DNA from: Verrucomicrobiota bacterium | Lineage (GTDB): Bacteria > Verrucomicrobiota > Kiritimatiellia > RFP12 > UBA1067 | Assembly (NCBI GenBank): GCA_022704125.1 | Contig: JAKJHA010000002.1 | Location: forward strand, 1 to 37,880 | Direction of reading: 5' to 3' | DNA: 37,880 bases | Part shown: positions 11,059 to 28,483 of the stretch, piece after piece | Layout of the letters: each line of letters begins with the position of its first letter | How positions within the stretch are numbered: the first letter of the stretch is position 1 | Notes under the pieces: model-generated | The model's database searches: none | Seen by the model: the letters and a program-made list of their open reading frames with translations, nothing else | Told to the model about the DNA's origin: nothing | Made by a program: the position numbers and the translations under genes

Positions 11059-11457
11059 TCAAAACTCGACGCGTGCGCGTGCGGCTTTTTTCTCGCTGTG
11101 CTTGCGCTTTTCGTCGAGCATGCGCGCTTTCTGGCGGCGGGAGCGGCGTCGTTTTTGGCGGCGGATTTTTTCAGCGGCCTGACGGCGCGCTGAAAGCTCG
11201 CTTTTCGCGCGCTCTAAAATCTTCTCGGCCAGTTCGCGGCGCGCGAGCCAGCGGTTCGCTTCGCGCGAACGGCTGCGGCCATACTTAATCGTCATGCCGC
11301 TGGGCACGTGATAGAGGCGGACGGTCGATGAGGTTTTGTTGGTCTTTTGCCCACCGGGGCCTGAACCCAGAATAAACGACTCCTGAAGGTCCTCCTCGAA
11401 GACCGAGGCCAGGGCCATGCGCGCTTTGATTTTGTCTATCGTTTCCGGGCTAAGCAA
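11059..11457 (-). CDS. GGQ-motif peptidyl-tRNA hydrolase / release-factor-like protein (ArfB/ICT1-like)
   Basis: 'GSGPGGQKTNKTSSTVRLYHVPSG' RF-1 domain motif followed by a long K/R-rich C-terminal tail, as in ArfB. Preferred start is TTG 11457, which has GGAG 5 nt upstream. ATG 11418 and the track start 11496 are alternatives, and the 11496 extension translates a REP element. Confidence 0.75.
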   Translation of the reverse strand: MLSPETIDKIKARMALASVFEEDLQESFILGSGPGGQKTNKTSSTVRLYHVPSGMTIKYGRSRSREANRWLARRELAEKILERAKSELSARRQAAEKIRRQKRRRSRRQKARMLDEKRKHSEKKAARARVEF

Positions 11458-11487
11458 AAAGACTCCTGACGCCGCAACCGGGTGGGG

Positions 11488-11528
11488 CACGGGCATCTTG
11501 CCCGTGTTTCATGGGCGGGACGCCCATG
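11488..11528 (+). repeat. Dual-hairpin REP-like unit (second copy)
   Basis: CACGGGCA-tct-TGCCCGTG (11488-11506) plus CATGGGCG-gga-CGCCCATG (11510-11528). Same architecture and orientation as 10940-10979. Confidence 0.8.
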
Positions 11529-11542
11529 CCACAGATGGTGCG

Positions 11543-11572
11543 GATCACGGTAAAAAAATTGAAACCGTGATC
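11543..11572. repeat. 9-bp perfect inverted repeat GATCACGGT-N12-ACCGTGATC at the inferred prophage/host junction
   Basis: Read directly at 11543-11551 and 11564-11572, with an A/T-rich 12-nt loop. Located between the REP unit and the stop of the last phage ORF. Confidence 0.7.
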
Positions 11573-11600
11573 TCGATAGTAGCAGAAGCGGCGATGGCCA

Positions 11601-11828
11601 TCAAGTCGCTGCTTGGGGCGGCGTAGATTCGCCTGCCGCTTCACGGGCGGCCTTGTTGCGCCTTCGCGCTTCGTGCGACCGGCTGGCCAGAGCAGCATAA
11701 TCAATGTCGCGGCGTTTTGCCGCGCCTGTTCCGGCTCTGCCCATGAGGCTCGCGGCCAGTTCCGGCGATGCCGGAATTGCCGCGCCGCATTCTGGACAGA
11801 TGATGTGGGTTCCTTTTTTCATGATCAC
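11601..11828 (-). CDS. Small hypothetical protein with a CPEC half zinc-ribbon and a basic C-terminus
   Basis: GTG 11828 (GTGA overlap with the upstream stop) or ATG 11822. 'HIICPECGAAI' followed by a basic tail 'SHEARRRNKAAREAA'. Confidence 0.6.
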   Translation of the reverse strand: MIMKKGTHIICPECGAAIPASPELAASLMGRAGTGAAKRRDIDYAALASRSHEARRRNKAAREAAGESTPPQAAT

Positions 11829-12097
11829 TCGCCCAGCTTCGCCAGTCCGTCTCGGTAGCCCTGCCCGCGCTCGTGGCGCGGGCGATCATCTGGGTCGGCA
11901 TCCGCCGCAGCCAGCCACGTCTCGTGCTCTTCCTGCGTTCCGAATTGATCACCGTAAAACGCACGTCGTAATCCGCGCTCGTAGCCAAGCCAGTATTCCG
12001 GTCTATCTCCGGCCGCCAGCATTGATTTTGAGCGGTGTAATTCAGATGTGAAGATGGTTTTTTTATCCATTTTGCTCTCCTCGTTTTTCGTGTTCAT
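11825..12097 (-). CDS. Small hypothetical protein ('YWLGYERGLRR' motif)
   Basis: ATG 12097 overlaps the upstream stop (ATGA). ATG 12070 with GAGGAG 6 nt upstream is an equally good start. Low GC, about 42% in one hand-counted 60-nt line. Confidence 0.6.
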   Translation of the reverse strand: MNTKNEESKMDKKTIFTSELHRSKSMLAAGDRPEYWLGYERGLRRAFYGDQFGTQEEHETWLAAADADPDDRPRHERGQGYRDGLAKLGE

Positions 12098-12390
12098 TCC
12101 GCCTGTTGCTGTTTTTCCTCGTCCGTCGGTTCCTCCAGAATTTTGAGCAGCGTTTTTTCGCTGTACGCGAACTGATCGCTATTGAAAATTCTAGCGTGTT
12201 TTTCACCGCGCACTCGGATGCGCGCACCGTGTTTGCGTTGCGCCCGCAGCGCCGCCAGCGGGCTCCTGTGCCACGAAATCGTGTATAGGATGTCCGGTCG
12301 TCCGCTGATCATGTTCATGGTCGCGTTCGCAAGCCGTTCGTCCAACTGACACACCTCGTAGCGCGGTTGATTTCTCATTGTCGGTGTCAT
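12094..12390 (-). CDS. Hypothetical protein (98 aa)
   Basis: ATG 12390 with AAAGGA upstream. First gene of a three-gene overlapping set. No motif recognised. Confidence 0.6.
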   Translation of the reverse strand: MTPTMRNQPRYEVCQLDERLANATMNMISGRPDILYTISWHRSPLAALRAQRKHGARIRVRGEKHARIFNSDQFAYSEKTLLKILEEPTDEEKQQQAE

Positions 12391-12419
12391 CGTATCATCC
12401 TTTCGTTTATGGTTGCGAT

Positions 12420-12453
12420 AAAAAAGTGGTGCCCGCCGGAATCACCGGCGGGC
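12420..12453 (-). terminator. Rho-independent terminator after the 82-aa gene
   Basis: Stem GCCCGCCGG-aatca-CCGGCGGGC (12431-12453) lies 7 nt after the TAA stop (12461-12463). On the minus strand it is followed by CAC-TTTTTT-AT. Confidence 0.75.
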
Positions 12454-12460
12454 GATGGTT

Positions 12461-12709
12461 TTAGAAATCCTTCGGGTAAGCGTGAGCATGGTAGTAGAAA
12501 TCGTATTCGACTCCTGCTTCCGCCCATGCTTTCAGATCATCGGTAGCCGAAGTGAATAGATAGAATGTCGCTCCGTTTTCGTCGCGGATGGTGGTCCACG
12601 TTTCATCCGGTTTCCATTCTATAGCCACGTCGTTGTTGTCGCAGAGGGCTGCGATCATGCCCTTTTTCATTAGTTCCTGCGCAGTATCGCGGTCAATTAG
12701 AGTTGCCAT
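12461..12709 (-). CDS. Small acidic hypothetical protein (82 aa)
   Basis: ATG 12709 preceded by AAGGAG. Net acidic and D/E/W/Y-rich, with no TM segment. Followed by a terminator. Confidence 0.65.
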   Translation of the reverse strand: MATLIDRDTAQELMKKGMIAALCDNNDVAIEWKPDETWTTIRDENGATFYLFTSATDDLKAWAEAGVEYDFYYHAHAYPKDF

Positions 12710-12726
12710 GTTTTCTCCTTGTGGTT

Positions 12727-12749
12727 GCCCGCCGGTGCCACCGGCGGGC
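12727..12749 (-). repeat. Intercistronic hairpin with the same 9-bp stem as the 12431-12453 terminator
   Basis: GCCCGCCGG-tgcca-CCGGCGGGC. It has no T-run and sits between the stop at 12764 and the RBS/start at 12709. Confidence 0.7.
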
Positions 12750-12763
12750 GGTGTTGAAGACGT

Positions 12764-13369
12764 TTAGATGCCCATCTCGCGCAGTGTCTGTGAGGGCTCT
12801 AATTTAAGCCCACTTTCTTTTTCCATCTCGGCGATCAGCGACCGAACAATTTCGGGGTTGCCGTCGGCCGGGATTTCCCGCTCGATATCATAGGCGCTGT
12901 CAGATCCTTCGCGCATAGCGGCAGGACAAAGCAGATCGCTGGTTTTGGAAGTGATGCACAGAAAAGCTTTGCCGTCTCGAATATCGGCAAAAACGGCGGC
13001 CGTTTTCCGGGACGCCGGCTCGTCCGGTTTCTTTTGATCCTTGCCCAGCTCGGCATCAATCTCGGCGAGCCGCGCGAGCAGTTTGTCGCGCTCGGCGCGC
13101 AATGCTTCACGGCTATCGGAAGCAGGAGCGTCTTCTGGCAAATTGAAGATGCGGATGTTTTTGTTTTCGGCTATCGCTGCCGCGAGCCGGTATCTGTCCG
13201 GCTTGGTCGCGCGCGGGTCACCCTCTTGTTCCCACTTTTCCACTAGCCAGCAAGCAAAACATTTGCGCCCGGCTTCGCTGGCTATCCGTGAGTCTCGCTG
13301 TCTTTGTGGGCCGTAAAGCTGTATCTTGCCGGTGTGGCCGCAAGCCCATTCTACTGTTTCCCATGCCAT
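12764..13369 (-). CDS. Hypothetical protein with N-terminal C-x-H...C-x-x-C zinc-ribbon, coiled-coil centre and acidic C-terminal domain
   Basis: ATG 13369 preceded by AAAGGAGAAAAG. 'WACGHTGKIQLYGPQRQRDSRIASEAGRKCFACW'. 'REALRAERDKLLARLAEIDAELGK' is coiled-coil-like. The track start 13405 is unlikely. Confidence 0.7.
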   Translation of the reverse strand: MAWETVEWACGHTGKIQLYGPQRQRDSRIASEAGRKCFACWLVEKWEQEGDPRATKPDRYRLAAAIAENKNIRIFNLPEDAPASDSREALRAERDKLLARLAEIDAELGKDQKKPDEPASRKTAAVFADIRDGKAFLCITSKTSDLLCPAAMREGSDSAYDIEREIPADGNPEIVRSLIAEMEKESGLKLEPSQTLREMGI

Positions 13370-13425
13370 GGTCTTTTCTCCTTTGGTGTTTTCGGGCGAG
13401 CCCATCCCGCCCTTTTGTTGCCCAC

Positions 13426-13454
13426 ATAATAGCGCAACGTTGCGCTATTGTCAA
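13426..13454 (-). promoter_or_regulatory. Near-consensus sigma70 promoter with an embedded 22-bp perfect palindrome (operator candidate)
   Basis: The minus strand reads TTGACA (13449-13454), a 17-nt spacer, then TATTAT (13426-13431). The palindrome AATAGCGCAACGTTGCGCTATT (13428-13449) spans the spacer and touches both hexamers. An A/T-rich UP-like tract lies upstream (13460-13500). Confidence 0.7.
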
Positions 13455-13501
13455 TGGGGCGTAACAACTTTTTTCAAATATTTTTTGGCACAAAAAAACC
13501 G

Positions 13502-13534
13502 CCGTCGGCGGGGGCCAACGGCGGCTCGGCGTGA
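13502..13534 (-). terminator. Rho-independent terminator after the lipoprotein gene
   Basis: Stem CCGCCGT/ACGGCGG (13509-13515 / 13528-13534), followed on the minus strand by a T7 run (complement of 13502-13508). It lies 19 nt after the stop at 13553. Confidence 0.65.
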
Positions 13535-13552
13535 CTGGTTTAAACGGCTGTG

Positions 13553-14011
13553 TCACTGGTTCGGAACGGTGCAACTTCCGTCTGCGCAGTTGCCGTTCGC
13601 ACAGGCGCTGATTGCGTTTGCCTCTTCGGACGTCAGCTTTGTCCCGGCCGGGGCGGTGCCGCTGATGATCGACATCAGCTTTTGCAGCGCATCGCCAACG
13701 ATGCCGGATTGCGGTGATGCGCCGCCGGTACCCGCGCTGCCCCCGCCGACGCCGACGGCGACTTCTGGCCGTGTGTCGGTGGTTTGTGTAGCGGTGGAAT
13801 CCTGCTTATCCCCGCCGCCGTCCGCCGACGCGTATAGTCCGTCGCCGACGGTGATGTGGATGGTATTGGATGTCCCGAAGATTTCCGCGCGGATGTCGCG
13901 GTACGATGCACGGTTGCTGCGGCTGGCCGGGTCTGCCGTCTGGCAGCCGGACAGCATGAGTAGCGCGGCAAGCGCGGTCGCGCCCGCCGTCGTGATAGTT
14001 CTGTTTTTCAT
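13553..14011 (-). CDS. Lipoprotein (o-spanin-like or exclusion lipoprotein)
   Basis: ATG 14011 gives MKNRTITTAGATALAALLMLSG|C with a lipobox LSGC. G/T/S-rich mature part. Cys-rich C-terminus 'ACANGNCADGSC'. The K-rich track extension to 14104 is less likely. Confidence 0.7.
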   Translation of the reverse strand: MKNRTITTAGATALAALLMLSGCQTADPASRSNRASYRDIRAEIFGTSNTIHITVGDGLYASADGGGDKQDSTATQTTDTRPEVAVGVGGGSAGTGGASPQSGIVGDALQKLMSIISGTAPAGTKLTSEEANAISACANGNCADGSCTVPNQ

Positions 14012-14111
14012 GGCTTTTCCCTTTTTTAGTTTTGCGTCAAGGCGAGCCTTTTTGACAGCCGCCTTTTTACGCTTGTCCGAGAGTTTTTCAGGTTTTGATT
14101 TCATGGGAATC

Positions 14112-14459
14112 TCACCCTCCGATAATGCGTTTTAGTTGCGTGACCAGTTCATTCCGCACCGCAGCGATCTCTGCCTCGGTCGGAGGACGGCCCTCGAACA
14201 ACTCGAAGTTGTCGGCGAACTCGGCAAGCGATTTATCCATGATCCCGCGTATCGCGGCCGACCCCTCACCGCCGTCTTTCATCACCTCGCGCGCGGCCGC
14301 AATGAAGGTCGCAACGACCGGCTGCGCGTAACACCACACGTATTCGAGCAGCGATCCGCGCGTCTTGCTCTTCAGCCATTGCGCCAGAGCGTTGAGCGCT
14401 AGCACGATCAGCGTGATGAGCGCAGTCTGGACCTGCACGTTGTTCAGTAGTTCGTTCAT
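14112..14459 (-). CDS. Single-pass membrane protein (i-spanin / holin-like)
   Basis: ATG 14459. N-terminal TM 'VQTALITLIVLALNALAQWL' followed by a helical soluble part. Sits between a 2-TM protein and a lipoprotein. Confidence 0.6.
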   Translation of the reverse strand: MNELLNNVQVQTALITLIVLALNALAQWLKSKTRGSLLEYVWCYAQPVVATFIAAAREVMKDGGEGSAAIRGIMDKSLAEFADNFELFEGRPPTEAEIAAVRNELVTQLKRIIGG

Positions 14460-14506
14460 GTGTTTCTCCTGTTGGCCACGGCATCGCGCCGTGGATGAAA
14501 TCGTCG

Positions 14507-14842
14507 TTACTCGTTGCTGCGCCGACAGTGATTTATCGCAGATTGCACCTGCTCCATCGCGCGGCAAGTTTCCGCGATCACTCTGGTGTTCGCTTCGATG
14601 ATCGTGTCAAATTTACTGAACTGTAGCTTGATCAAATAGGCTGTCGTTCCTAAGCTCAGAATGAACCCGAATGCGAGTATGCCGGTGGCGCTCAGTTTTT
14701 CGATACGCTCGGCCGCTGTGAACGGATCGGGCATCTCCGTGGCCACCACCAGCGAGACGGCGAAAAGCGACGCGATCAGCATGACGGCAAAAATGCGTAT
14801 CGCTCCGTACCGCACTTCTTCTTTGAACGATTTTACAACCAT
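14507..14842 (-). CDS. Two-TM membrane protein (holin candidate)
   Basis: ATG 14842 preceded by GAGGAG. TM1 'IRIFAVMLIASLFAVSLVVA', TM2 'GILAFGFILSLGTTAYLI', and a charged C-terminus. Confidence 0.6.
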   Translation of the reverse strand: MVVKSFKEEVRYGAIRIFAVMLIASLFAVSLVVATEMPDPFTAAERIEKLSATGILAFGFILSLGTTAYLIKLQFSKFDTIIEANTRVIAETCRAMEQVQSAINHCRRSNE

Positions 14843-14854
14843 GAAAAAACTCCT

Positions 14855-15295
14855 CTATAATGGCCGAAAAGTTACATCGCGCGGTGGACTCCGAAAACCG
14901 CGCGATGCCGGCTGACACCGTGTCCGCCGGAAAATCACTAAAAGCACTAGGGTCGACGCAAGAAACACTGCGTAGCCACACTGCCCGTGCACTCGCTCAA
15001 ATATGGCCGGATGGCGCAAGCAGAGCGCGACAAGCGTGAAGCATCTAAGCCAGCTCATCGCCGTGCCGACGGCCAGCGCAGCGGGAAACGGCCACGCTTG
15101 CCGCAGGCCGGCCGACGCGACCAGGCCGACCAGACCGACAAGCATGACAGCCCGCGTTGCAAGACACCCCGGCTGTACCTGCACGGCTGTGTCGCCGCAG
15201 ACGATCACGTTCCCGAACGCCTGCATGTCCCAGCCGACACCGGACCAGATCGCCGCGACGGTCCAAGCGTAGATCCTGCAAACAAGCTCCATCAT
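14855..15295 (-). CDS. Polytopic (about 4 TM) membrane protein with exosortase/archaeosortase-like Cys-Arg-His pattern (tentative)
   Basis: ATG 15295 overlaps the upstream stop (ATGA). 'GNVIVCGDTAVQVQPGC44LATRAVMLVGL', 'AMSWLR84CFTLVAL' and 'FERVH103GQCGYAVFL' occur in the order and spacing I recall for the exosortase core. The protein is roughly half the size of known exosortases. Coding status is solid; the function is a hypothesis. Confidence 0.4.
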   Translation of the reverse strand: MMELVCRIYAWTVAAIWSGVGWDMQAFGNVIVCGDTAVQVQPGCLATRAVMLVGLVGLVASAGLRQAWPFPAALAVGTAMSWLRCFTLVALCLRHPAIFERVHGQCGYAVFLASTLVLLVIFRRTRCQPASRGFRSPPRDVTFRPL

Positions 15296-16392
15296 TTGAT
15301 CGTCCTCATGTTGTCGAGCGGAGGCATGGCCAGTTTCAGCCTCGGCACATCCGGTTCCTCTGCTACCACATCAGGAATGAGATCACGTGCTGTCAACGCG
15401 CCGCCGTCCTTGATCATCAACCCGCCATTTGCGGGTAGCCGCGCGTCGCCGGTGATCAGGCGCTCGGCCGGCTGGTCGGCTTCGATGGTCGCGTACCGCG
15501 TCGCGCCTGCTCCGGCCGATTTCGCCATCGGTTCAGGAGCACCGCCCTCGCCCTGCGTTGCGGCCTTCGGTTCCATCTTGAACACGCCGCCTTTGATCTG
15601 CACCGGTCGGCCGTCGATGATGTAGTCTCCGGTGATGCCCTCATACATCTTGCCGCTCACTGGATCGACCAGCACGACGCCCTCGATCTGGCAACCGTTC
15701 GGACCTCCAAGCAGAATCTCATCCGCAGCCGCTATGTACCCGTCCACGCCGACGGGTGGACGGAACGTGTAAGTGTACGCATTGACGGATGTGTTGCTGG
15801 GGTAGCTCGTACTTTCGTGCTCTACCCACCATGTCGCGCCGTCGCGCCGCCGACGCAGGTACATCATGACGGCGGGTTCGTCTGTGATCTCTCGCGATGC
15901 CTGCACCTCAACCGTCCACGTTCCATCGCCGTTGTTGGTCAGATTTTTCGGCCGCAGTTTGATGTTCTGGTTGCCCGGGTTGTTGAGCAGGTTTGGCCGC
16001 AACTGCATCACCGGCGGTTTCCGCGCCGGCCGTTTCACCGTGTTCGTGATCGCGATGATTTCGGTGTCGATCACCTCGACGCGCTCACGGACGAACGTGA
16101 TGCCGGACAGCATCTCCAGCCACGAAGCCTTCACCGCCTGCGTCCATTTGAGCCACTCTCTTCTTACCCTCATGTAGCGATACACTTGCGGCGGCACAGG
16201 CTTGCCTCGCTCGCCGTCGGCCAGCGCGAACGCCGCCGCGCACAAACCACCGATCAACACGGCGCACATGGTCGGGAGCGGTTGCCAGCGGCGACGCCGT
16301 ATCAGCCATCGCGCCGCGAAAAGCAGCGGGACGGCCGCGAGCACAAACAGCCACGCGGCGAGTTCAAGCTGGCACTGTTCGCAGATCGTCAT
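15292..16392 (-). CDS. Membrane-anchored protein (two N-terminal TM segments, large beta-rich ectodomain)
   Basis: ATG 16392 lies 2 nt after the upstream stop. TM segments 'LAAWLFVLAAVPLLFAA' and the Gly/Ala-rich 'MCAVLIGGLCAAAFALA' (SAR-like). No catalytic motif recognised. The track start 16602 is an Arg-rich extension. Confidence 0.65.
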   Translation of the reverse strand: MTICEQCQLELAAWLFVLAAVPLLFAARWLIRRRRWQPLPTMCAVLIGGLCAAAFALADGERGKPVPPQVYRYMRVRREWLKWTQAVKASWLEMLSGITFVRERVEVIDTEIIAITNTVKRPARKPPVMQLRPNLLNNPGNQNIKLRPKNLTNNGDGTWTVEVQASREITDEPAVMMYLRRRRDGATWWVEHESTSYPSNTSVNAYTYTFRPPVGVDGYIAAADEILLGGPNGCQIEGVVLVDPVSGKMYEGITGDYIIDGRPVQIKGGVFKMEPKAATQGEGGAPEPMAKSAGAGATRYATIEADQPAERLITGDARLPANGGLMIKDGGALTARDLIPDVVAEEPDVPRLKLAMPPLDNMRTIK

Positions 16393-16394
16393 CG

Positions 16395-17213
16395 TTACGG
16401 TTCCATCATCATGATCACGAGCGGGTTGTTGGTATCCACCGCGAACCCGCCGCGGATGTTCAACACGATGTTTGTTCCGCCCACCACATCGAGAGCTACA
16501 ATGTCGTAGTTCGCGCCGCCCGCCACCCCTCCGATGATCGGCAGCGCGTTGCCTCGGATCACGAATCCGGTTGCGAGCAGTTTGAAGGAACACTGCCCCC
16601 ACGACAAAGGGACGGTGGCCGTCACGCGGTAGCAGGCGCCGCCCGTTTTCCCGTAGTCTGCCGGTGTCCCGATTTGATCCGGGAACGTGTTTGTCACCGT
16701 GATGCTCTCGAATCCGTTTTCGAGCAGGTTGGTCGTGTGCGTGGCGACAAAATCAGGCATCTGCGGCGGCACCTCGGCGAACCATTGGACGATGTGGCAC
16801 TGCCTGCCGTCCGCCGTGTCCTCGACGCTGAACCCGACCGTCTCGCTGGCGATGTCGTCCGCCGCGCCGACGCCCCGCAGTGCCGACATCGTGAACGCGA
16901 TCTCCCATACGCCGTTCGACGTGAGATCCGCCACGTCGTGCCACGCCGCGCTAGCCCGGTTGCTCGACGTCACCGCGATCGCGAGCGCCTGAGTGGCCAC
17001 CGCGTCGGCCTGGATGATCGCCGCCTCTGCCTCGCGGAATTCCTGCATCGTGGGCACCACGCCGAGAGGATGTATTGTGCCAGATACAAGATTGCTGCCG
17101 CCGTCGCCGAACACCGCGTCGTGAACGGTCAAGTCAAACCACCCGCCGCTGATCTGCCCCTGTGCCGCGCCCGCCGCGATCAACGCCGCTATCATGAAAA
17201 TGATTCGCCTCAT
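16395..17213 (-). CDS. Exported protein, unknown function (Sec-type signal peptide)
   Basis: ATG 17213 overlaps the upstream stop (ATGA). Signal peptide MRRIIFMIAALIAAGAAQG|Q. Beta-rich with a Gly-rich C-terminus. Confidence 0.65.
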   Translation of the reverse strand: MRRIIFMIAALIAAGAAQGQISGGWFDLTVHDAVFGDGGSNLVSGTIHPLGVVPTMQEFREAEAAIIQADAVATQALAIAVTSSNRASAAWHDVADLTSNGVWEIAFTMSALRGVGAADDIASETVGFSVEDTADGRQCHIVQWFAEVPPQMPDFVATHTTNLLENGFESITVTNTFPDQIGTPADYGKTGGACYRVTATVPLSWGQCSFKLLATGFVIRGNALPIIGGVAGGANYDIVALDVVGGTNIVLNIRGGFAVDTNNPLVIMMMEP

Positions 17214-18004
17214 TGCACCGGCTCCCATGCTGTCGTGAGTAGGTTCGTGTCCCAGTACTGCCGGTACCACACACCATCACGCAAGATCATGGGTACGGTA
17301 ATGTCGGCGATGGCTGATGTGAGATCGGGGACGGTGACGATCATGGAAAGATCATATACCGCAACGAGATTCGTAATCATCACATCGCGCGGCCCGATCG
17401 TCAGCGAGCCGCTCCCCGATTGCGATCCGTTTGAATTGTAATATGCGTGGGGTACCGTCCACGGGTAGTCGGGCGGCAGGCTCGGGTTCATGTGGGTGGG
17501 GATGGAGAGCGGCACGTAGGAAATAGCGAAAAACGGATCATCCTGATAGCAGATAAAATTCGCGTCCTGGCTGTTGAACGTTGACAGCGGCGCGCGCGCC
17601 GCGCCGCTGAACTCAACGACCGTCCCGTCCGGCCGCATATAGCCGAACTGATCCGACACCGAATAGTAGACTAGATTCGTCGGATATACGCTCCACACGC
17701 GACCTGTGCCGCCGTCGATAGTGAAAAACCATGCACTGTCTTGCGACGCAAGGGCGGTGAACTCCAGCGCAGCGAGGGCCTCGGCGAGCTGCACCTGCGT
17801 GAGCGCACCGATCTGGCCGGGCGTGATACCGTGGGGGTTGTCCCTTCGCATGGTGTGCGCATGCGCTTCGTCCAGGCGATTGCTTTGCGGACCGATCACC
17901 ACCTCCGCGCGATCGGCCGTCACGTCGGCCAGCAGCGTGATTTTCGTATCTCCGTGCGCGGCGGCAGCGGCAATGATGCAGAGTGCAGTCAGTATCGTTC
18001 TCAT
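17210..18004 (-). CDS. Tail-fibre-like protein with Sec-type signal peptide
   Basis: ATG 18004 overlaps the upstream stop (ATGA). Signal peptide MRTILTALCIIAAAAAHG|D. 'NPHGITPGQIGAL' is a motif I recognise from phage tail-fibre/spike proteins. The C-terminal half has lower GC. Confidence 0.6.
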   Translation of the reverse strand: MRTILTALCIIAAAAAHGDTKITLLADVTADRAEVVIGPQSNRLDEAHAHTMRRDNPHGITPGQIGALTQVQLAEALAALEFTALASQDSAWFFTIDGGTGRVWSVYPTNLVYYSVSDQFGYMRPDGTVVEFSGAARAPLSTFNSQDANFICYQDDPFFAISYVPLSIPTHMNPSLPPDYPWTVPHAYYNSNGSQSGSGSLTIGPRDVMITNLVAVYDLSMIVTVPDLTSAIADITVPMILRDGVWYRQYWDTNLLTTAWEPVQ

Positions 18005-19203
18005 GGTGTTTCCTCCCGTATCCAGAGTGAGTGTTTACCGTCCGCTTCAGGACGGGCGTAGATGGTGTTTTTTAACTCGCTTTGCAATGCCACCCTATCT
18101 ACACGCTGTGTTTTTATGGTCATGACTTCCCGGGAGAATAAGCGTGACCAGCCGAACCAATCGGTTGCATAGATTCCATCAGTTGCCGATGCTGTTCCCC
18201 AAAGCGCACCGATGTCTTCGCCCAACCATATCTCGGTGTGAATCGGTGCGTATGGAGGCTCTGATGTGCCGGAAATGTATCCGTGTGGAGTCTCGATGTA
18301 AAATTCAGGAGGCAGGGGGAACGACAGCCCATCCAGCACCGATGTGGTCGCCGGTGAGATGGAATCGGTGTAGAACCAGTTTGTCACGGCAGTTGGGCCG
18401 ACCAGCCACACGCTACCGGTTGCATCAATCCAGCGGTCTCCATCAAGCGTGGCGATCCTGTCCGTTGCCACTACAACGTCACCGGTTTTTCCGTTCACAC
18501 TTGTTACGGGGAAAACAACCGCGTCGATTGCAGAAGAGATTTCTTGATCCGTCTGCGATCTGGTGTAGTAGTTCACAATGCCAGATGCCAAAAAATAACC
18601 TGCTTCAGCATGGTTGCCCCAAGAGTGCGCCAAATCCCAACGGTTGGTGTTTTGCTCGATGTTGCCTATTCTGGATTGCAGTGGACCGACAACCGCCGCG
18701 ACCTGCTGCGTTGTTGCTGCCGCAGATGCGATTGCGAGCGCCTGCGTTGCGACGGCGTAGGCGCGATCCCCGACGATCCATTCAGCGGGGAGCGACGTGC
18801 GCGCCGGGTTCAGCCGCACCACGGCCGCGCCGCGCCCCCACTCTTCGATCCGCCCGTCGCGCGCCCCGAGGATGATCGCGTCGTATCTGCCGTTGGTCGG
18901 CGCCGCCGTCGCCGCGAGGTCCCATGTCATGCGGCCGTGAACGGCCGTCACGTTGGTCAGCGTCATGCCGCCGCCGTCGCCGCCACGGTCGCCGATCCAC
19001 AGGAGTCCTGTCCAGCCGGTCGGGTCAAACTCCGCTCCGGCCGACAGCAGGTTCGCGCGTACGGTTACGTCCGTCGCCTCGGTGACCGTCAGCGCGAACG
19101 GACGCGCCGGGCGTTCGAGGTCGAGCGTGATCTGCTCGACGCGCCCGGCGTTGATCGATAGGGGAATGATGGCACACGTCAGAAAGAAGGCAATCGCTCT
19201 CAT
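18001..19203 (-). CDS. Tail-fibre / baseplate-upper-protein-like protein with Sec-type signal peptide
   Basis: ATG 19203 (the track start 19260 is a TTG). Signal peptide MRAIAFFLTCAIIPLSINA|G. BppU-N-like Ig segment ('DVTVRANLL..GRYDAIILG..AAVVRLNP'). Fibre motif 'SVNGKTGDVVV'. The distal two-thirds has low GC. Confidence 0.6.
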   Translation of the reverse strand: MRAIAFFLTCAIIPLSINAGRVEQITLDLERPARPFALTVTEATDVTVRANLLSAGAEFDPTGWTGLLWIGDRGGDGGGMTLTNVTAVHGRMTWDLAATAAPTNGRYDAIILGARDGRIEEWGRGAAVVRLNPARTSLPAEWIVGDRAYAVATQALAIASAAATTQQVAAVVGPLQSRIGNIEQNTNRWDLAHSWGNHAEAGYFLASGIVNYYTRSQTDQEISSAIDAVVFPVTSVNGKTGDVVVATDRIATLDGDRWIDATGSVWLVGPTAVTNWFYTDSISPATTSVLDGLSFPLPPEFYIETPHGYISGTSEPPYAPIHTEIWLGEDIGALWGTASATDGIYATDWFGWSRLFSREVMTIKTQRVDRVALQSELKNTIYARPEADGKHSLWIREETP

Positions 19204-19219: not shown

Positions 19220-19444
19220 TCAAATATCGGTTTGCAGCTCCAGCATCCCTGTCGGTTCAACAGGATCAGGCGGTTCGTATATTTCTTCCGACCATGATGC
19301 GTTATCGTACTCCTCCTCTAAATTATCAAACCCAAGCGTAGAGATGTCGTTGCCGACTACTACCGAGACGGTGGCATTTGGATCAAGCGCCCCGAGAGAT
19401 ACATCGCCATCTGCGCCATATGCCCAAACCTCATTTTCAGCCAT
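19220..19444 (-). CDS. Small highly acidic protein (fibre assembly chaperone candidate)
   Basis: ATG 19444 preceded by AGGTGA. 74 aa, D/E-rich. Positioned between two fibre-type genes. Confidence 0.55.
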   Translation of the reverse strand: MAENEVWAYGADGDVSLGALDPNATVSVVVGNDISTLGFDNLEEEYDNASWSEEIYEPPDPVEPTGMLELQTDI

Positions 19445-20279: not shown

Positions 20280-21041
20280 TTATGTCGCTATTATGAGTGA
20301 ACTGGGGACTTCAACGGTAAACCTGCCTTCAGAGCTTACGGCTGCCAAAGCACCCATCGCATTAAACTGAAATTGCCGGTAGTACGCATCGAGCCGTGGG
20401 ACATCCGCCGTGTGGTCGTAGCGTATGCGAGTTAAAACAGTGATGTTTAACGCTTCCTGGCCGTCTGATTGCCAACTTAATTGGCTGGTGTTAACTCCGC
20501 CCTCATTTTGCGCCAACAAATCCTTCGTTGAAGTGCCGTAAAAAAATGCCGGGCCGATCGCGTGGCGGTGATCGGCACGGGAATAATAACTTGATGTGCC
20601 GGCTTCTCCGGACGCCCCCCCCGTCAATGACAAAGGTGTGACGTTCGATCCGTTAAATTGATGCGAATGGTCGCCGCGGGCGTATTGAGAGCTTGATCCG
20701 GGCGAACCACCATCCCTTGGCGGCGTGTATGGGTAATAGTTCCCGGGGTGCTGGTGATCGCCACGCGCTGCCAGCGGCGAAGAACCGGCGGATCCGTTTC
20801 CGCCGTCCGCAGGCGGCGCGTTGTTACTCAGCTCGATGTCCGGAGCGGGAGGAATCTGGATGCGCCACGGCGTGTCACGGCCGGGCTGCGCGTTTTTCAG
20901 GATTTGCGGATGCGTCAATCCCTCGACTTCTTCGATCACGATATGATTCAGGATGCCCGCAACGGTCTGCATGATCTCCGTTGTGATCATGTCGCGCAGC
21001 GGCGTTCCCGGTTTGAATTTTTCAGGCAGGGGAAAAGACAT
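20280..21041 (-). CDS. Tail fibre protein with three (A/S)R(G/A)DHxH repeats
   Basis: ATG 21041 preceded by GGAG. 'GSAGSSPLAARGDHQH', 'GSPGSSSQYARGDHSH' and 'GEAGTSSYYSRADHRH' spaced about 30 aa apart. The track start 21137 is an Arg-rich extension overlapping the upstream gene. Confidence 0.65.
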   Translation of the reverse strand: MSFPLPEKFKPGTPLRDMITTEIMQTVAGILNHIVIEEVEGLTHPQILKNAQPGRDTPWRIQIPPAPDIELSNNAPPADGGNGSAGSSPLAARGDHQHPGNYYPYTPPRDGGSPGSSSQYARGDHSHQFNGSNVTPLSLTGGASGEAGTSSYYSRADHRHAIGPAFFYGTSTKDLLAQNEGGVNTSQLSWQSDGQEALNITVLTRIRYDHTADVPRLDAYYRQFQFNAMGALAAVSSEGRFTVEVPSSLIIAT

Positions 21042-21054
21042 CGGTGCTCTACTC

Positions 21055-21387
21055 CTATAGCGGCGGGTTCCACGCCGACCACGCCGACCACGCGGTGGTT
21101 TCCTGTGTCGTCTTGGTGATCTTGTACGCGCCGGCATCGTTCTGCCTCGATATCTCGACTGTGACCACGGTGCGCTTGCCGTTCCCGTCGATTGAATCGC
21201 TGCTCATTGTGCTTGCAGATGTGTTTGCCGCAGCCTCGGTCATGCTGCGGTACTCGACAACGGTCGTGGTGATCTGCCGCGAACTGTAGCGCCTGTTTGC
21301 GCCGGCGTTCGCATACTGATACACCGTTTCCACGATGTTGCGCTTGCTGATCGAAATCGGTGCCGGTAGTGTCGTTAGCCATCCCAT
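21055..21387 (-). CDS. Hypothetical tail protein (110 aa)
   Basis: ATG 21387 preceded by GAGGTGA, 11 nt after the tape-measure stop. Its composition is protein-like, unlike the overlapping Arg/His-rich frame 20987-21397. Confidence 0.6.
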   Translation of the reverse strand: MGWLTTLPAPISISKRNIVETVYQYANAGANRRYSSRQITTTVVEYRSMTEAAANTSASTMSSDSIDGNGKRTVVTVEISRQNDAGAYKITKTTQETTAWSAWSAWNPPL

Positions 21388-25414: not shown

Positions 25415-25584
25415 ACACTGCTACGGGAAAGTCTCTGACTCCCCGTAAGGGGCGATCCGGTAGCCGTGCCAGGCTGCGACCGGATGTTGCTGGGGGGGGA
25501 CGGCACAGTCCCCCGTGTCCATGGAAGGGGGCGCGAGTCTAACCTTCAGGCGGGACCACGAAAGGGGGCCCGCCATTTTTTTTT
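25415..25584 (+). ncRNA. Candidate plus-strand structured small RNA (5-prime end undefined)
   Basis: Successive hairpins: TACGGG/CCCGTA, ATCCGG(AGCC..GGCT)CCGGAT, GGGGGAC-ggcaca-GTCCCCC, GAAGG/CCTTC. It ends in a plus-strand intrinsic terminator. No convincing ORF on either strand and no promoter confidently identified. Confidence 0.3.
25549..25584 (+). terminator. Plus-strand rho-independent terminator abutting the MuF gene stop codon
   Basis: GGCGGGACC-acgaaag-GGGGCCCGCC followed by A + T9 (25576-25584). The minus-strand reading has no T-run after the hairpin, so it is oriented for plus-strand transcription in an otherwise all-minus region. Confidence 0.65.
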
Positions 25585-27364
25585 ACCTGACGTAGACCAG
25601 CGTCCCTTTTCTCCAGTGGTTCAGGCTGCGCTCGTTCGTGTGCCAGCTGTAGATGTGCCTGCCCCTGTGGTCCACGACATTGACGACTACGTTGCCACCG
25701 GTGCCCTTTACGAAACGGATATATGTCTTGCGACCCGTCTTCCGGTCTTTCCAGATTTCATGCGGCTTTTCCACCGTTGCCTTCGCCTGATCCATCTCGG
25801 CCAAACGTTTCTTGATCTCGCTTGGCTTCCTGTCCGGTTTCAGCAAGTGCTTGAGCGTCACGGCGTCAAATGCCAGCGTTTCACCGATTGGATTATCGAC
25901 ACTCTCACCGGCGGCGATGCGTGCTCTGGCATCGTCTGCCGATACAAGCGGCTCGCGGTCGTCGGCCTTCATGGCCTCCCCCTTTTCGAGCCCCATCGAT
26001 TTCCAGTCGCCGGTCTTCCCTACCATCTGTTTCGGTGTTGGTGTCGGCGTCTGTTTCGGCTCCGGCTTCGGCTTCGGTTTCGGTTTTGCCGCCGGTTGCG
26101 GAACCGGTGGATGGGGTGTGTCGCCTCCACTCTTGGACAGCCCGAGCACCCGCAGGATGTCGTCGGCGCTTGGGTCGCGCGGTGTCAAAATCCGCCCCTT
26201 GTAGACCGTCCCCGGCTGCTCCTTGTTCCGCGCCTTCTCAAACTTGGGGATGCCGCGCTCCCTGATCGCGTCGAGCTGCTCCGGCGTGAGGCGCCGCGCG
26301 GCCTTCGCCGCCTCGTCCGAGAAGGTGCCGCTGCGGATGGCGCGCTCCAGCCGGTCGGCGGTCACGGCGCGCCTGGCGTCCTCGGCGCTCATCCCCTCGG
26401 CCGTGTAGCGCGCCTCGTCGATCTTGTCGCGCTGCCTCTGCATGAATTCGCGGTCCGCCATCTGGGCGGCCGAGGGCTTGCCGAGCTTGGACTGCCGCTC
26501 GATCTCGGCGGCGTCGATCAGGCTGTCCACGGGCAGCGGGCGGTGGACGCAGTTGGGGTGGAACATGCCGGCGGCGCGCGCCTCTTCGTAGGTCGGCCAC
26601 TGCCTGGACTTGCCCGTCATTAGGATGATGCGCCCTTCCCACGCCGCGCACACCGGGCATTCGCCGTCGCCGACCCGGTTGATCTGCGCCAGTTTGAAGC
26701 CGTGGGCGGCGAGGGTGTCGATCTCGCTCTCGATGGCCGCGCGCTGCGCCGTGGTGCGCACCAGCATCTGGAGGTAGCGCGCGCCCTCCCACTGGCGCCC
26801 GGCGCGGTCGGTGAAGCGGTACGCGTCGTCGTCGTCGGCGAGCTCGTCCCAGCGGTCGCGCAGCGCCTTCTGCATCTCGTTGGCGGACAGCCCCTCGACG
26901 GCGCCGCGCCGGAACACGTCCACGACGGCGAACCGCAGCGAGGACACCGCCTTGGACGTCATCTGGTCGGTGAACACGGCGGCGAGGCTGCGCTCGTTGC
27001 TGGGGTGGATGATCTTGAAGTAGCGCTCGGCGCGCCCGGGGTCGTACGCCGCGAGTTTCGCGCGCGACGGCGGCATGTCGGCCAGCGCCGCCTCATGCCC
27101 GGCTTTCGCGGCGTACTCGGTCAGTTCCTTGATGTGCGCGTCGATGCCTTCGGCCAGCTCCCTGTACTTCTCTTCGATCTCGGCGTACAGTTCCTCGCGT
27201 TCCTTCGCGCTCGATGCCGTCTTTGCCTGCGCCGCGGCCAGCGCGATCATCGCGCGTACTTCTTTGCGGGCGCGTTTCAGTTCGCGCATGAGATCGGCCA
27301 CCGTACGCGTCTGATACGCGCGTAGCTTTCTGAGAGGGGGCGGGAGGTTAGACGGCGCTGCCAT
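25583..27364 (-). CDS. MuF / SPP1-gp7 family minor head protein with P/K-rich linker and C-terminal PBECR-like nuclease-toxin domain
   Basis: ATG 27364 lies 2 nt after the upstream stop. MuF signature 'CPVCAAWEGRII....MFHPNCVHRPLPV'. Linker 'PQPAAKPKPKPKPEPKQTPTPTPK'. The C-terminal about 110 aa, 'LKHLLKPD...PHEIWKD..KTYIRFVK..VVVNVV..IYSWHTN...WRKGTLVYV', resembles the phage Barnase-EndoU-ColicinE5/D-RelE-like pattern. Confidence 0.75.
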   Translation of the reverse strand: MAAPSNLPPPLRKLRAYQTRTVADLMRELKRARKEVRAMIALAAAQAKTASSAKEREELYAEIEEKYRELAEGIDAHIKELTEYAAKAGHEAALADMPPSRAKLAAYDPGRAERYFKIIHPSNERSLAAVFTDQMTSKAVSSLRFAVVDVFRRGAVEGLSANEMQKALRDRWDELADDDDAYRFTDRAGRQWEGARYLQMLVRTTAQRAAIESEIDTLAAHGFKLAQINRVGDGECPVCAAWEGRIILMTGKSRQWPTYEEARAAGMFHPNCVHRPLPVDSLIDAAEIERQSKLGKPSAAQMADREFMQRQRDKIDEARYTAEGMSAEDARRAVTADRLERAIRSGTFSDEAAKAARRLTPEQLDAIRERGIPKFEKARNKEQPGTVYKGRILTPRDPSADDILRVLGLSKSGGDTPHPPVPQPAAKPKPKPKPEPKQTPTPTPKQMVGKTGDWKSMGLEKGEAMKADDREPLVSADDARARIAAGESVDNPIGETLAFDAVTLKHLLKPDRKPSEIKKRLAEMDQAKATVEKPHEIWKDRKTGRKTYIRFVKGTGGNVVVNVVDHRGRHIYSWHTNERSLNHWRKGTLVYVR

Positions 27365-27366
27365 GA

Positions 27367-27753
27367 TCACCCCCTGATCACCGCGCCGCCGGTCATCCCC
27401 AGCCACCGCAATGCCTCGGGTGCGTACACCGATGCGCTTGTGCCGCGCACGTCATCCGTGTCCGGGCGTCCGGTCAAGACCGGCACAGGGTCGTTGCCGT
27501 CGGCGTCGGCCACCTGCCCGTTCTCCAGCATCCACAACGCCTGTTCGTACACGGCGTACTCGTCGCGCGTCCGGTCGCCCTCTTTGTAGGCCGGTTCGTT
27601 CTCGTCCATCGGGCGGCCGAGGCCGCGCGCCAACACGCGCCGCGCCGCCGCGATCGCGCCTGTCCTGTGCGCCTGTCCGAACGCCGACCACACGGCCGCC
27701 TTGTGGTGGTTCTCTGAACCGAAATAGATTTGCGCTCTGTCGAAAGAAATCAT
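27367..27753 (-). CDS. Head-tail connector (gp6-like) candidate
   Basis: ATG 27753. 128 aa. Assigned by position and size. Confidence 0.45.
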   Translation of the reverse strand: MISFDRAQIYFGSENHHKAAVWSAFGQAHRTGAIAAARRVLARGLGRPMDENEPAYKEGDRTRDEYAVYEQALWMLENGQVADADGNDPVPVLTGRPDTDDVRGTSASVYAPEALRWLGMTGGAVIRG

Positions 27754-28063: not shown

Positions 28064-28483
28064 CTATTTTCGAGATCCGTACAGTTCGCCGACCACCTGC
28101 AAAGCGCCGTTGGTCGCCGTGCTAAAGATCACGCTCACCGGTTCGCCGGGGTAGCAGTACTGCGTGAACAGCGACGCGAGGTTCGTGCTCACCGCTCCGG
28201 ACGTGAGCGAGATCGCGCCGGCCGTGTTGGTCTGCACCGTGCCGTCGGCCCGCTGGTGCAGCCAGCGGACGGTCACCGTCCCGTTGTCGGGATAGGCCGC
28301 GTCCACGTTCAGCCAGATCGGGCGCGAGGTGTACCGTTGCGACAGCGTGAAACTCACGACCTTGTTGGTCGGGATCAGCTTGTCGTTGCATACTACGTCG
28401 CTTGCCGCCGGTGCTGCTACCACCGTGTTCACGTAGCCCGCGACGGCCACAAGAAACGCCAGAATCAGGAACATCTTTTTCAT
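28064..28483 (-). CDS. Small exported beta-rich protein (Sec signal peptide) in the head-decoration position
   Basis: ATG 28483. Signal peptide MKKMFLILAFLVAVAGYVNTVVA|AP. 139 aa. Immediately downstream of the capsid gene. Confidence 0.65.
   Translation of the reverse strand: MKKMFLILAFLVAVAGYVNTVVAAPAASDVVCNDKLIPTNKVVSFTLSQRYTSRPIWLNVDAAYPDNGTVTVRWLHQRADGTVQTNTAGAISLTSGAVSTNLASLFTQYCYPGEPVSVIFSTATNGALQVVGELYGSRK

Follow-up and report, generated by a model that had tools for sequence, protein, structure and literature searches.

The window analysed in this work is a stretch of 37,880 nucleotides (contig JAKJHA010000002.1, positions 1 to 37,880) from a Kiritimatiellia bacterium. Its positions 1 to about 12,000 are host chromosome, and from about 12,700 to the right-hand end it is occupied by a prophage encoded on the minus strand. 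The element of interest is a block of four consecutive prophage genes, designated A to D, which is followed by an exosortase-like gene (gene E) and then by genes F, G and H (Table 1). The host flank (97%) and the prophage recur in near-identical form on a 1.97-Mb contig (L008) of a Kiritimatiellia metagenome-assembled genome (MAG), and the host of this phage is therefore a diderm bacterium of the Planctomycetes-Verrucomicrobia-Chlamydiae (PVC) group. In what follows, labels of the type L008 refer to loci or contigs with homologues, and labels of the type P0003 refer to member proteins of the family defined by the N-terminal domain of A.

Organization of the gene block and its N-terminal leaders

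In an initial annotation, made from the sequence of this stretch, the four genes were described as tightly coupled, and the junctions, which can be read directly, consist of ATGA overlaps or of a 2-nt gap (Table 1). The three signal-peptide N-termini quoted in that annotation are present exactly as given and show the compositional properties of Sec signal peptides: as judged by composition heuristics, the leaders of A, B and C have a positively charged n-region, a hydrophobic h-region of about 7-15 residues and small residues at -3/-1. All of the leader and transmembrane (TM) calls in this work come from our own hydropathy and composition rules and not from a trained predictor. The predicted mature N-terminus of A is GRVEQIT-LDLER, and the first peptide of predicted mature A would be GRVEQITLDLER, extending to PAR. 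No lipobox was found in A to D; a lipoprotein nature of A was considered and rejected, as its invariant Cys10 occurs too early in the leader. The two N-terminal TM segments attributed earlier to the fourth gene correspond in D to helices TM1 (residues 9-27) and TM2 (residues 39-57), which form a hairpin around an RRRR cluster (residues 32-35); TM2 ends in ..AFALA/DGE, a possible signal peptidase I (SPase I) site, and for about 300 residues of D an extracytoplasmic location is predicted. The leaders of the phage block resemble the signal peptides of host proteins in the window. In comparisons with a relative, the ratio of nonsynonymous to synonymous substitutions (dN/dS) is 0.13 for C, 0.16 for D and 0.12 for E, indicating purifying selection.

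If the starts of these genes had been mis-called, or if hydrophobic N-termini had arisen by chance in ordinary cytoplasmic fibre genes, then the leaders would be an artefact. However, such an explanation is extremely unlikely. Between codons 1 and 80 of A, neither ATG nor GTG nor TTG occurs in frame, and the conserved domain of A, which begins at residue 20, can thus not be made without the leader; for A, this excludes the case of a true start downstream of the leader, which the initial annotation had named as one that would refute it. A is not preceded by a Shine-Dalgarno sequence, B has an in-frame GTG at codon 28, and a few members of the family described below (P0024 and P0029) appear to be mis-started, all of which would be consistent with an artefact, but the ATG of B has GGAGG 8 nt upstream and that of C is preceded by GGGAG. 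Further, in a hydropathy scan of all 32 prophage genes, a comparable N-terminus was seen in only one of the 23 upstream phage genes (positions 28064-28483), whereas A, B and C all have one and D to H are membrane proteins or lipoproteins. Leaders were likewise present in most of the independently assembled protein clusters which were recovered using a profile free of the leader.

Table 1. Positions of the genes and other features discussed in the text (aa, amino acids; a slash marks the predicted or possible cleavage point)
Feature	Position in window or protein	Strand	Remarks
Gene A	19203 (ATG) to 18001 (stop)	-	400 aa; overlaps B by ATGA
A leader	residues 1-19		MRAIAFFLTCAIIPLSINA/G; predicted Sec/SPase I
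A BppU-N-type beta-sandwich	residues 20 to about 150; 18754-19146	-	
A helical stalk		-	includes ATQALAIA linker (18727-18750)
A variable C-terminal part		-	with SVNGKTGDVVV (residues 235-245; 18469-18501)
Gene B	18004 (ATG) to 17210 (stop)	-	264 aa; overlaps C by ATGA
B leader			MRTILTALCIIAAAAAHG/D; signal-peptide-like
B fibre motif	residues 56-68; 17801-17839	-	NPHGITPGQIGAL
Gene C	17213 (ATG) to 16395 (stop)	-	272 aa; 2-nt gap to D (TAAcgATG)
C leader			MRRIIFMIAALIAAGAAQG/Q; signal-peptide-like
C linker	16974-16997	-	ATQALAIA, common to A and C
Gene D	16392 (ATG) to 15292 (stop)	-	366 aa; overlaps E by ATGA
Gene E	15295 (ATG) to 14855 (stop)	-	146 aa; polytopic membrane protein, truncated exosortase/archaeosortase catalytic half
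Gene F	14507-14842	-	111 aa; two TM helices (hydropathy), holin-like candidate directly after the exported block
Gene G	14112-14459	-	115 aa; one N-terminal TM helix (hydropathy), candidate lysis-cassette member
Gene H	13553-14011	-	lipoprotein candidate (..ALLMLSGC counted from Met at 14011); final gene of transcription unit
Terminator-like hairpin	13496-13527	-	14 pairs then T-run, just 3' of H
Acidic protein	19220-19444	-	74 aa, without leader; stop 16 nt before ATG of A; last cytoplasmic gene before the exported block
Prophage genes, upstream, early part			two DNA methylases, large terminase, portal, scaffold, HK97-type capsid protein
Prophage genes, next			minor capsid protein 2 with PBECR2 fusion, neck protein, several unassigned proteins
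Prophage genes before block A to D			469-aa coiled-coil protein, small proteins, His-x-His-repeat fibre
Host genes, left part of window			tricorn-like S41 protease, twin-arginine (TAT)-signal GFO/IDH/MocA oxidoreductase, HEAT-repeat protein, Mfd, RF-1-domain protein (ArfB-like)

Relationship to BppU and the leader-bearing family

The layout of A comprises a leader, a BppU-N-type baseplate-attachment domain, a stalk and a mosaic C-terminal binding part. Residues 20-150 were modelled with AlphaFold from a 48-sequence alignment with good scores (predicted local distance difference test, pLDDT, 90.7; predicted template-modelling score, pTM, 0.81), whereas the model of full-length A is poor (pLDDT 41.7). 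When the model of this domain was compared with the PDB using Foldseek, the BppU of the lactococcal phage TP901-1 was found first (4v96, and 3uh8, the "N-terminal domain of ORF48"), and other matches included the baseplates of 80alpha (6v8i), NF5 and Douge and some neck structures. The E-values of 4v96, 3uh8 and 6v8i are 8e-8 to 1e-6, with a probability of 1.0 and template-modelling scores of 0.60-0.69 on the query; for the matches as a group, the E-value is about 1e-7 and the template-modelling score 0.6-0.7. Foldseek matches in BFVD were to BppU-domain (E-value about 1e-7), minor tail, tailspike and baseplate proteins. The suggestion in the initial annotation of a BppU-like segment is thereby backed by the comparison of folds and not by the Pfam BppU_N model, and this lack of a sequence-level match is one of the differences between A and BppU. 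In other respects the two are alike: in both, the mature protein opens with this domain, behind which come a helical stalk and a receptor-binding end; the C-termini are mosaic, and the tail module has the gene at its distal end. However, in most of the clusters recovered here the domain stands behind a Sec-type leader of about 19 residues, the accessory genes neighbouring A also carry leaders or TM helices, and the host is a PVC-group diderm, whereas that of BppU is Gram-positive.

The two motifs which had led to the proteins being described as fibre-like were both located, viz. SVNGKTGDVVV in A and NPHGITPGQIGAL in B. The fibre-like nature of A is supported by its fold, and that of B by a weak match of its NPHG motif to tail-fibre families of PHROG (phrog_8147, E-value 4.7e-4). 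The description does not extend with independent evidence to the other two proteins: C had no match in Pfam, PHROG, NCBIfam or the PDB and shows no likeness to fibres apart from its ATQALAIA linker, and D gave no informative match in Pfam, PHROG, NCBIfam or PDB sequence searches. Weak syntenic homologues of both are present in L001, where that of C also bears a leader and that of D has the same two-helix N-terminus. When A to E were searched against the PDB by sequence, only noise was returned. The role of an exported muralytic or depolymerase activity, which the initial annotation had offered as one possibility, found no support, as no domain of this kind was found in A to D in Pfam, PHROGs, NCBIfam or PDB sequences; the identification of D as a spanin or endolysin was likewise dropped, support for it not being found.

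A word-based homology search with A yielded six relatives, which are 40-85% identical to it over the first ~170 residues and then diverge completely. In P0003 and P0004, a single gene of 321 aa combines the N-terminal part of A with the C-terminus of B (..YRQYWDTNLLTTAWEPVQ), from which it follows that A and B are shuffled modules of one fibre design. The relatives of B include P0012 and P0013, which have a leader and a B-type body, and a 424-aa protein with a leader, an Ig-like N-domain and the B body.

A more extensive family was recovered using a HMMER profile of the mature A domain only, i.e. with the leader excluded, in an exhaustive search of 1.84 billion representative proteins. At an E-value of 1e-3 or lower it contains 104 protein clusters, of which 30 are found at 1e-30 or lower, and in nearly all members the domain starts at residue 17-30. 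By the hydropathy rule, 82 of the 104 clusters have an export-type leader directly before the domain, 15 have none, and 7 have internal repeats or are unclear. Thus, in answer to the check proposed in the initial annotation of whether homologues keep the signal peptides, the leader is retained as a feature and not as a sequence: its residues are barely conserved, whereas column identity among close relatives amounts to 76% in the mature domain, a pattern usual for signal peptides. Lys or Arg is present ahead of the hydrophobic core in 80 of the 81 leaders analysed, and at residue 2 or 3 in 67 of them. Based on these characteristics, the leaders are probably cleavable Sec/SPase I signals that direct export.

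It could also be considered that these N-termini are not removed, and that they serve as signal or assembly anchors, which either hold the fibres at the membrane during assembly or remain part of the virion and enter the target membrane upon infection. In some homologues the hydrophobic runs are as long as 21 residues, the Ala/Gly-rich cores of B and C resemble signal-arrest-release (SAR) domains, and D has clear TM helices by hydropathy. However, at a median of 16 residues, the uncharged runs of the 81 leaders are rather short for a TM helix to be stable, and 86% of the leaders have a strict -3/-1 site right at the domain boundary, compared with 36% at random internal control positions. Further, a positively charged N-terminal end would still lead to translocation of the remainder of the protein, and assembly in the cytoplasm would therefore not be restored. 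The predicted mature end of A also matches the domain start of a leaderless orthologue (described below). A role of the leaders as anchors is thus improbable, even though two leaderless members (P0081 and P0104) contain an internal hydrophobic segment after the domain. A segment of this kind was observed in P0081, P0084, P0104 and P0074, where the BppU-N-like domain starts at residue 1 and the signal-like segment occurs about 150 residues on (one example being ..ILKGATGVLALALLATTAQG/IP); this would be another membrane topology for a BppU-N-like domain.

One leaderless member, P0034 (E-value 2.7e-40), was inspected on its contig, L012. Its open reading frame (ORF) starts M(SM)VDKMAMRMKTLLVN-LDLER, with nothing leader-like upstream, and the domain begins 7 residues past an internal Met (MKTLLVN-LDLER), matching the predicted mature end of A (GRVEQIT-LDLER). 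The gene following this fibre gene (641 aa) is also leaderless. From this single leaderless locus, it appears that the whole block changes compartment together, suggesting a joint function of its proteins. In a neighbour-joining tree, which was built on 125 residues and is weak, the leaderless members occupy at least three positions, suggesting that the leader may have been gained or lost repeatedly.

The C-terminal modules of the relatives include BspA-type leucine-rich repeats (LRR_5), YadA_head, Laminin_G_3 and Pentaxin. E, P or Q forms the last residue in 63 of 106 proteins of the family. A PEP-like C-terminal motif (ETP, EP) was entertained for these ends and dropped, since the NNA-TGA codons of ATGA overlaps explain them more simply; the fit to such stop contexts implies that an ATGA overlap with the next gene is the norm in this lineage. 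Outside the exhaustive search, an IMG/VR scan with the N-domain of A gave no relatives, tblastn of A and B against 50,697 GenBank phages gave zero matches, and a metagenome scan with a shallow alignment gave mostly close relatives.

The genomic context was inspected in L001, L009, L010, L011, L018-L021, L024, L029 and L030, down to a profile E-value of 2e-4. Wherever upstream sequence is present, the leader-fibre gene closes one common structural module; L024 is a short contig with the fibre and downstream genes only. In the window and in all of the listed loci other than L024, the gene has a distal position after the gene at the tape-measure position and small hub genes. The tape-measure label of the 469-aa coiled-coil protein of the window derives from its position, as no family model matches this protein. 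The upstream homologues that recur are a 128-aa protein, minor capsid protein 2, a neck protein, a 221-aa protein, two 242-aa proteins, the coiled-coil protein and a small "MGW.." protein, and small proteins (62-69 aa) in L001 and L010 occupy the position of the 74-aa acidic protein of the window. Due to this recurrent module context, the leader-fibre gene is a core gene of the lineage and not a sporadic insertion. In L018-L021, just proteins of 138-147 aa are found between the coiled-coil protein and A, and the leader-bearing proteins are therefore the sole large fibre-like genes in these phages. The genes between the fibre and the lysis candidates encode leaders or TM helices in every variant that was readable.

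When the fibre gene combining A and B is compared between two elements that are almost identical elsewhere (L005 9194-10159 and L018 9947-10912), it accounts for 81 of the 84 coding differences, and its proportion of synonymous differences (pS) is 0.22 versus about 0 in seven neighbours. This pattern indicates a recent recombination or mosaic replacement confined to that gene. In L004, several short ORFs downstream of the A homologue (11154-12977) have BspA-type LRR-like sequences (..VVIPWEIGGVPVTAIG..) and look like one fibre gene broken by frameshifts, and the C-terminus of the A homologue itself becomes a Pro/Arg-rich read-through; these broken ORFs are probably an assembly error or a decaying gene.

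Proposed routes and roles of the putatively exported proteins

Tailed-phage particles are taken to assemble wholly in the cytoplasm. In one paper, the lack of signal peptides is even used to support the phage origin of a protein (PMC6199706). Since the leaders are conserved across a whole phage lineage, it is probable that the outermost virion parts of the present phage are made outside the cytoplasm or else have come to serve in the cell envelope. The comparison with relatives reduces the number of roles to be considered for A to D, without deciding between them. Our favoured reading, which is put forward tentatively, is that A to D constitute the distal fibre module of a temperate tailed phage of Kiritimatiellia, that this module has been moved as a whole to the Sec route, and that its products join the particles after holin action. 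According to this proposal, A, B and C would be released into the periplasm late in infection, and D would either be kept in the inner membrane by its hairpin or be released after TM2. Cleavage of the leader would give an A domain whose start matches that of leaderless orthologues. The fibres would then fold and assemble in the periplasm, where their adhesin-type modules (in relatives, BspA-type LRR, YadA-head and lectin folds) normally fold, and would dock via the BppU-N domain onto tails built in the cytoplasm, which could happen only once the holin-like proteins F and G have opened the inner membrane and the compartments mix. More speculative still is the generalization to a two-compartment pathway in Caudoviricetes, in which the virions of a broad and so far uncultured lineage of tailed phages would be finished outside the cytoplasm, and the receptor-binding fibres, and perhaps also a protein at the head-decoration position, would be Sec-exported.

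Alternatively, the proteins may be exported without being part of the virion, in which case they would form an envelope module derived from fibres, with the producing or lysogenic cell as its target. They could mask or destroy the phage's own receptor (leading to superinfection exclusion or keeping progeny off debris), loosen capsule or matrix for release, or serve as prophage adhesins. The evidence from the leaders applies equally to this explanation, for which there is also the position of the block directly before the holin-like genes, with each of the genes A to H encoding an envelope protein and with D and E being integral membrane proteins. Further, the C-terminal modules of the relatives are typical of secreted adhesins, the leaders of some homologues are lipobox-like, and the genes lom and bor of lambda, llp of T5 and cor of phi80, which provide a precedent, adjoin tail-fibre genes. 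A prophage remnant, described below, keeps the block and the lysis genes with all ORFs intact and has lost the head and tail genes. However, the best-conserved part of A is the virion-attachment domain and not the binding end, which speaks for docking and is unexpected in a decoy, and in the window there is no leaderless paralogue with the same binding domain that a decoy could mimic. The gene is also universal in the lineage, where it is found at the BppU position, and some of the phages are without another large fibre gene. The block is coupled to the late genes and has no promoter or terminator of its own; no hydrolase domain is present, and the superinfection exclusion proposed in the initial annotation is not borne out by PADLOC, in which A to H match no anti-phage defence or exclusion family. 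The remnant arose too recently for selection to be visible in it. Based on these considerations, a function in the envelope alone is the main rival of the favoured reading and somewhat less likely than it. In favour of docking to the particle, A further behaves like a host-range gene (mosaic C-termini, a divergence hot spot with elevated pS), and its predicted mature end matches the domain start after the internal Met of the leaderless orthologue.

Several points weigh against the docking of exported fibres to the particles. Our search of the literature revealed no precedent for a tailed-phage fibre that reaches the particle via the periplasm or bears a signal peptide. The Pfam BppU_N model gave no match to A (E-value of 0.1 or lower) or to 73 family members (1e-3 or lower), so that BppU membership of A holds at the level of the fold only, and this fold is found in neck and collar proteins as well. 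D looks membrane-anchored and is a poor fit for a virion part. The leaders of P0046, P0048 and P0060 are lipobox-like (..LAAC), and if these proteins are lipidated they would be tethered to the membrane, although in some homologues the LAAC is followed by A-L-A sites, making the type of leader ambiguous. It could also be the small leaderless proteins encoded after the coiled-coil protein (21055-21387 in the window; 139, 138 and 147 aa in L018) that bind the receptor. Lastly, the export and cleavage of A, B and C are predicted from sequence, and their presence in virions and their docking partner are presumptive.

The remnant referred to above was observed in L005 (7491-9194) and also in L006 and L007, beside the RF-1-domain (ArfB-like) gene and mfd, i.e. 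at the same site as the prophage of the window. Upstream of a truncated 66-aa gene, the phage sequence has given way entirely to an insertion sequence (DDE_Tnp_1) and host genes, the block consisting of A/B, C, D, E, F, G and the lipoprotein gene is intact, and the head and tail genes are gone; the junction is identical in contigs from three different metagenomes. However, it will be incorrect to interpret this remnant as proof of a benefit to the host, and this interpretation was rejected: in genes C to H, only 0-2 sites separate it from the intact prophage, which dates the truncation as recent and means that it carries no information on selection. The final gene of the unit in relatives (L005 13370-14113, L018 14123-14866 and L009 12742-13647) encodes a lipoprotein or membrane protein with a C-terminal CxxC (CSYC or CGRC), which is possibly thioredoxin- or glutaredoxin-like, and the window carries in its place the unrelated lipoprotein H. 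A periplasmic redox protein beside exported fibres could be relevant to the folding of the fibres.

Phage late proteins that use the host Sec system are known, viz. the secreted endolysin Lys44 of Oenococcus phage fOg44 and SAR endolysins such as P1 Lyz. As in these cases, A to D are located in the late region beside holin genes, and by analogy an N-terminal signal or signal-anchor would send the protein across the inner membrane before lysis. However, Lys44 and P1 Lyz are muralytic enzymes, whereas A to D have no muralytic domain and A has a virion-attachment fold. Lom and Bor of lambda, Llp of T5 and Cor of phi80 and N15 are envelope proteins encoded beside tail-fibre genes, and they act on the envelope or receptors of the producing cell. 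The present block shares with them the occurrence of exported or lipidated proteins near fibre genes in phages of diderms. They are small proteins with no relationship to fibres and are usually expressed from signals of their own, whereas the block described here is of the fibre type, coupled to late genes and universal in its lineage. Tail- or fibre-type proteins on the bacterial surface are known from PblA and PblB of the Streptococcus mitis phage SM1, which lack signal peptides and get there after permeabilisation by holin and lysin; in the present case, in contrast, export is encoded in each protein of the block.

What is new here is the occurrence of BppU-type fibre proteins with export signals as a rule, a baseplate-attachment fold being combined with an export signal not as an exception but in about 80 protein clusters of one phage lineage. 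If the virions are completed in the periplasm, this would be a new assembly route, which would also bear on the borrowing of host-range modules from secreted bacterial adhesins; if fibres have instead been turned repeatedly into proteins acting on the envelope, they would form a new class of exclusion, release or adhesion factors. Pipelines and host-range predictors which discard proteins with signal peptides as non-structural would miss leader-fibre genes. These genes also provide a first handle on the phages that infect Kiritimatiellia and their relatives in the PVC group. The phage-borne, minimal exosortase-like gene E is a second and separate oddity.

Gene E and other genes of the prophage

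The protein encoded by gene E had been described initially as sortase-like. Both Pfam and NCBIfam give exosortase-type models only, with no match to a family of Gram-positive (class A-F) sortases, to which E is unrelated, and it is thus a truncated protein of the exosortase/archaeosortase type. Its score against Pfam PF09721 (Exosortase_EpsH) is 28.9 bits (curated cut-off 25.7), covering profile positions 130-252 of 254, and that against NCBIfam TIGR04178 is 26.7 bits (curated cut-off 23). The invariant motifs of exosortases are CxG, NxxR and HxxxG (Haft 2006, PMC1569441). In E, the likely counterparts are C44-L-A, S81-W-L-R84 and H103-G-Q-C-G107, so that the triad residues are present but two of the motifs deviate (CxA for CxG and SxxR for NxxR). 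E thus resembles exosortase EpsH/XrtA and archaeosortase ArtA in matching the catalytic signature region, in the order of Cys, Arg and His and in being polytopic. It differs from them in its small size, its deviating motifs, its phage origin and the lack of a PEP-CTERM-type substrate nearby. The full-length multi-helix architecture of exosortases (about 250-500 aa) is not present, the N-terminal half being missing. Among the papers on exosortases and phages listed in our literature search, none deals with an exosortase encoded by a phage.

The presence of E beside the block raises the question of whether A to D are its substrates, being cleaved by it or attached covalently to an envelope polymer or lipid for surface display, and the initial annotation had listed them as possible substrates or partners of a sortase. 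The scores of E above both curated cut-offs, the expected order of its Cys, Arg and His, its coupling to D by an ATGA overlap and its purifying selection are consistent with such a function, and the first helix of D together with RRRR resembles the helix and basic cluster of a PEP-CTERM tail. However, this helix of D is N-terminal and not C-terminal, and A to D carry no C-terminal sorting signal for an enzyme of this kind: no ORF of at least 60 aa in the window has a PEP-CTERM-type tail (C-terminal helix and basic cluster), and NCBIfam shows no PEP-CTERM domain in A to D. The absence from E of the exosortase N-terminal half and the deviation of two of its three motifs also speak against it. 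Further, homologues of E are confined to the closest relatives (the Kiritimatiellae prophage group), with an unrelated leader-bearing protein at its position in L001 and L024 and nothing in L009, from which it follows that the conserved leader-fibre design is independent of E. E is a lineage-specific accessory to this design, and it is highly unlikely that A to D are its substrates.

In the region from 12764 to 14842 (minus strand), which corresponds to the end of the late operon and the lysis region, there is no recognisable endolysin, and F, G and H are small membrane proteins or lipoproteins. F is kept at 99% in relatives and has no match to families of Pfam, PHROG or NCBIfam. No strong promoter or terminator match was found inside A to E on the minus strand, and this, together with the terminator-like hairpin after H, places A to H in a late transcription unit. 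Between the late terminator and the attachment-site side lies a gene for a 213-aa protein (12764-13405, minus strand), which has CxxC pairs near its N-terminus and no Pfam match. It has its own promoter-like site (13454-13426) and a bidirectional terminator-like hairpin (12430-12454), and due to these signals it is a candidate for a moron expressed in the lysogen.

Three of the upstream genes also deserve mention. Minor capsid protein 2 (SPP1 gp7-like; 25583-27406, minus strand) has a C-terminal PBECR2 domain, a nuclease domain of the barnase/EndoU/colicin-like kind (Pfam E-value 1.6e-9), and this fusion suggests that a toxin-type domain may be carried in the phage head. Decoration proteins are often encoded directly after the major capsid gene, and the gene that directly follows it here (28064-28483, minus strand; also L004 326-745) encodes a 139-aa protein with a clear leader, MKKMFLILAFLVAVAGYVNTVVA/AP, and no family match. 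A leader-bearing protein of 145 aa, with no sequence likeness to that of the window, also follows the capsid gene in L011 (3254-3691). The 139-aa protein may represent a second exported "peripheral" protein of this lineage. Lastly, a 285-aa protein (20280-21137, minus strand) has three GDHxH/ADHRH repeats behind an Arg-rich N-terminal extension, which is probably due to a mis-called start. His-x-His motifs are typical of metal-binding fibre shafts, and homologues of this protein are present in L001, L004 and L016, with small proteins in its place in L018-L021.

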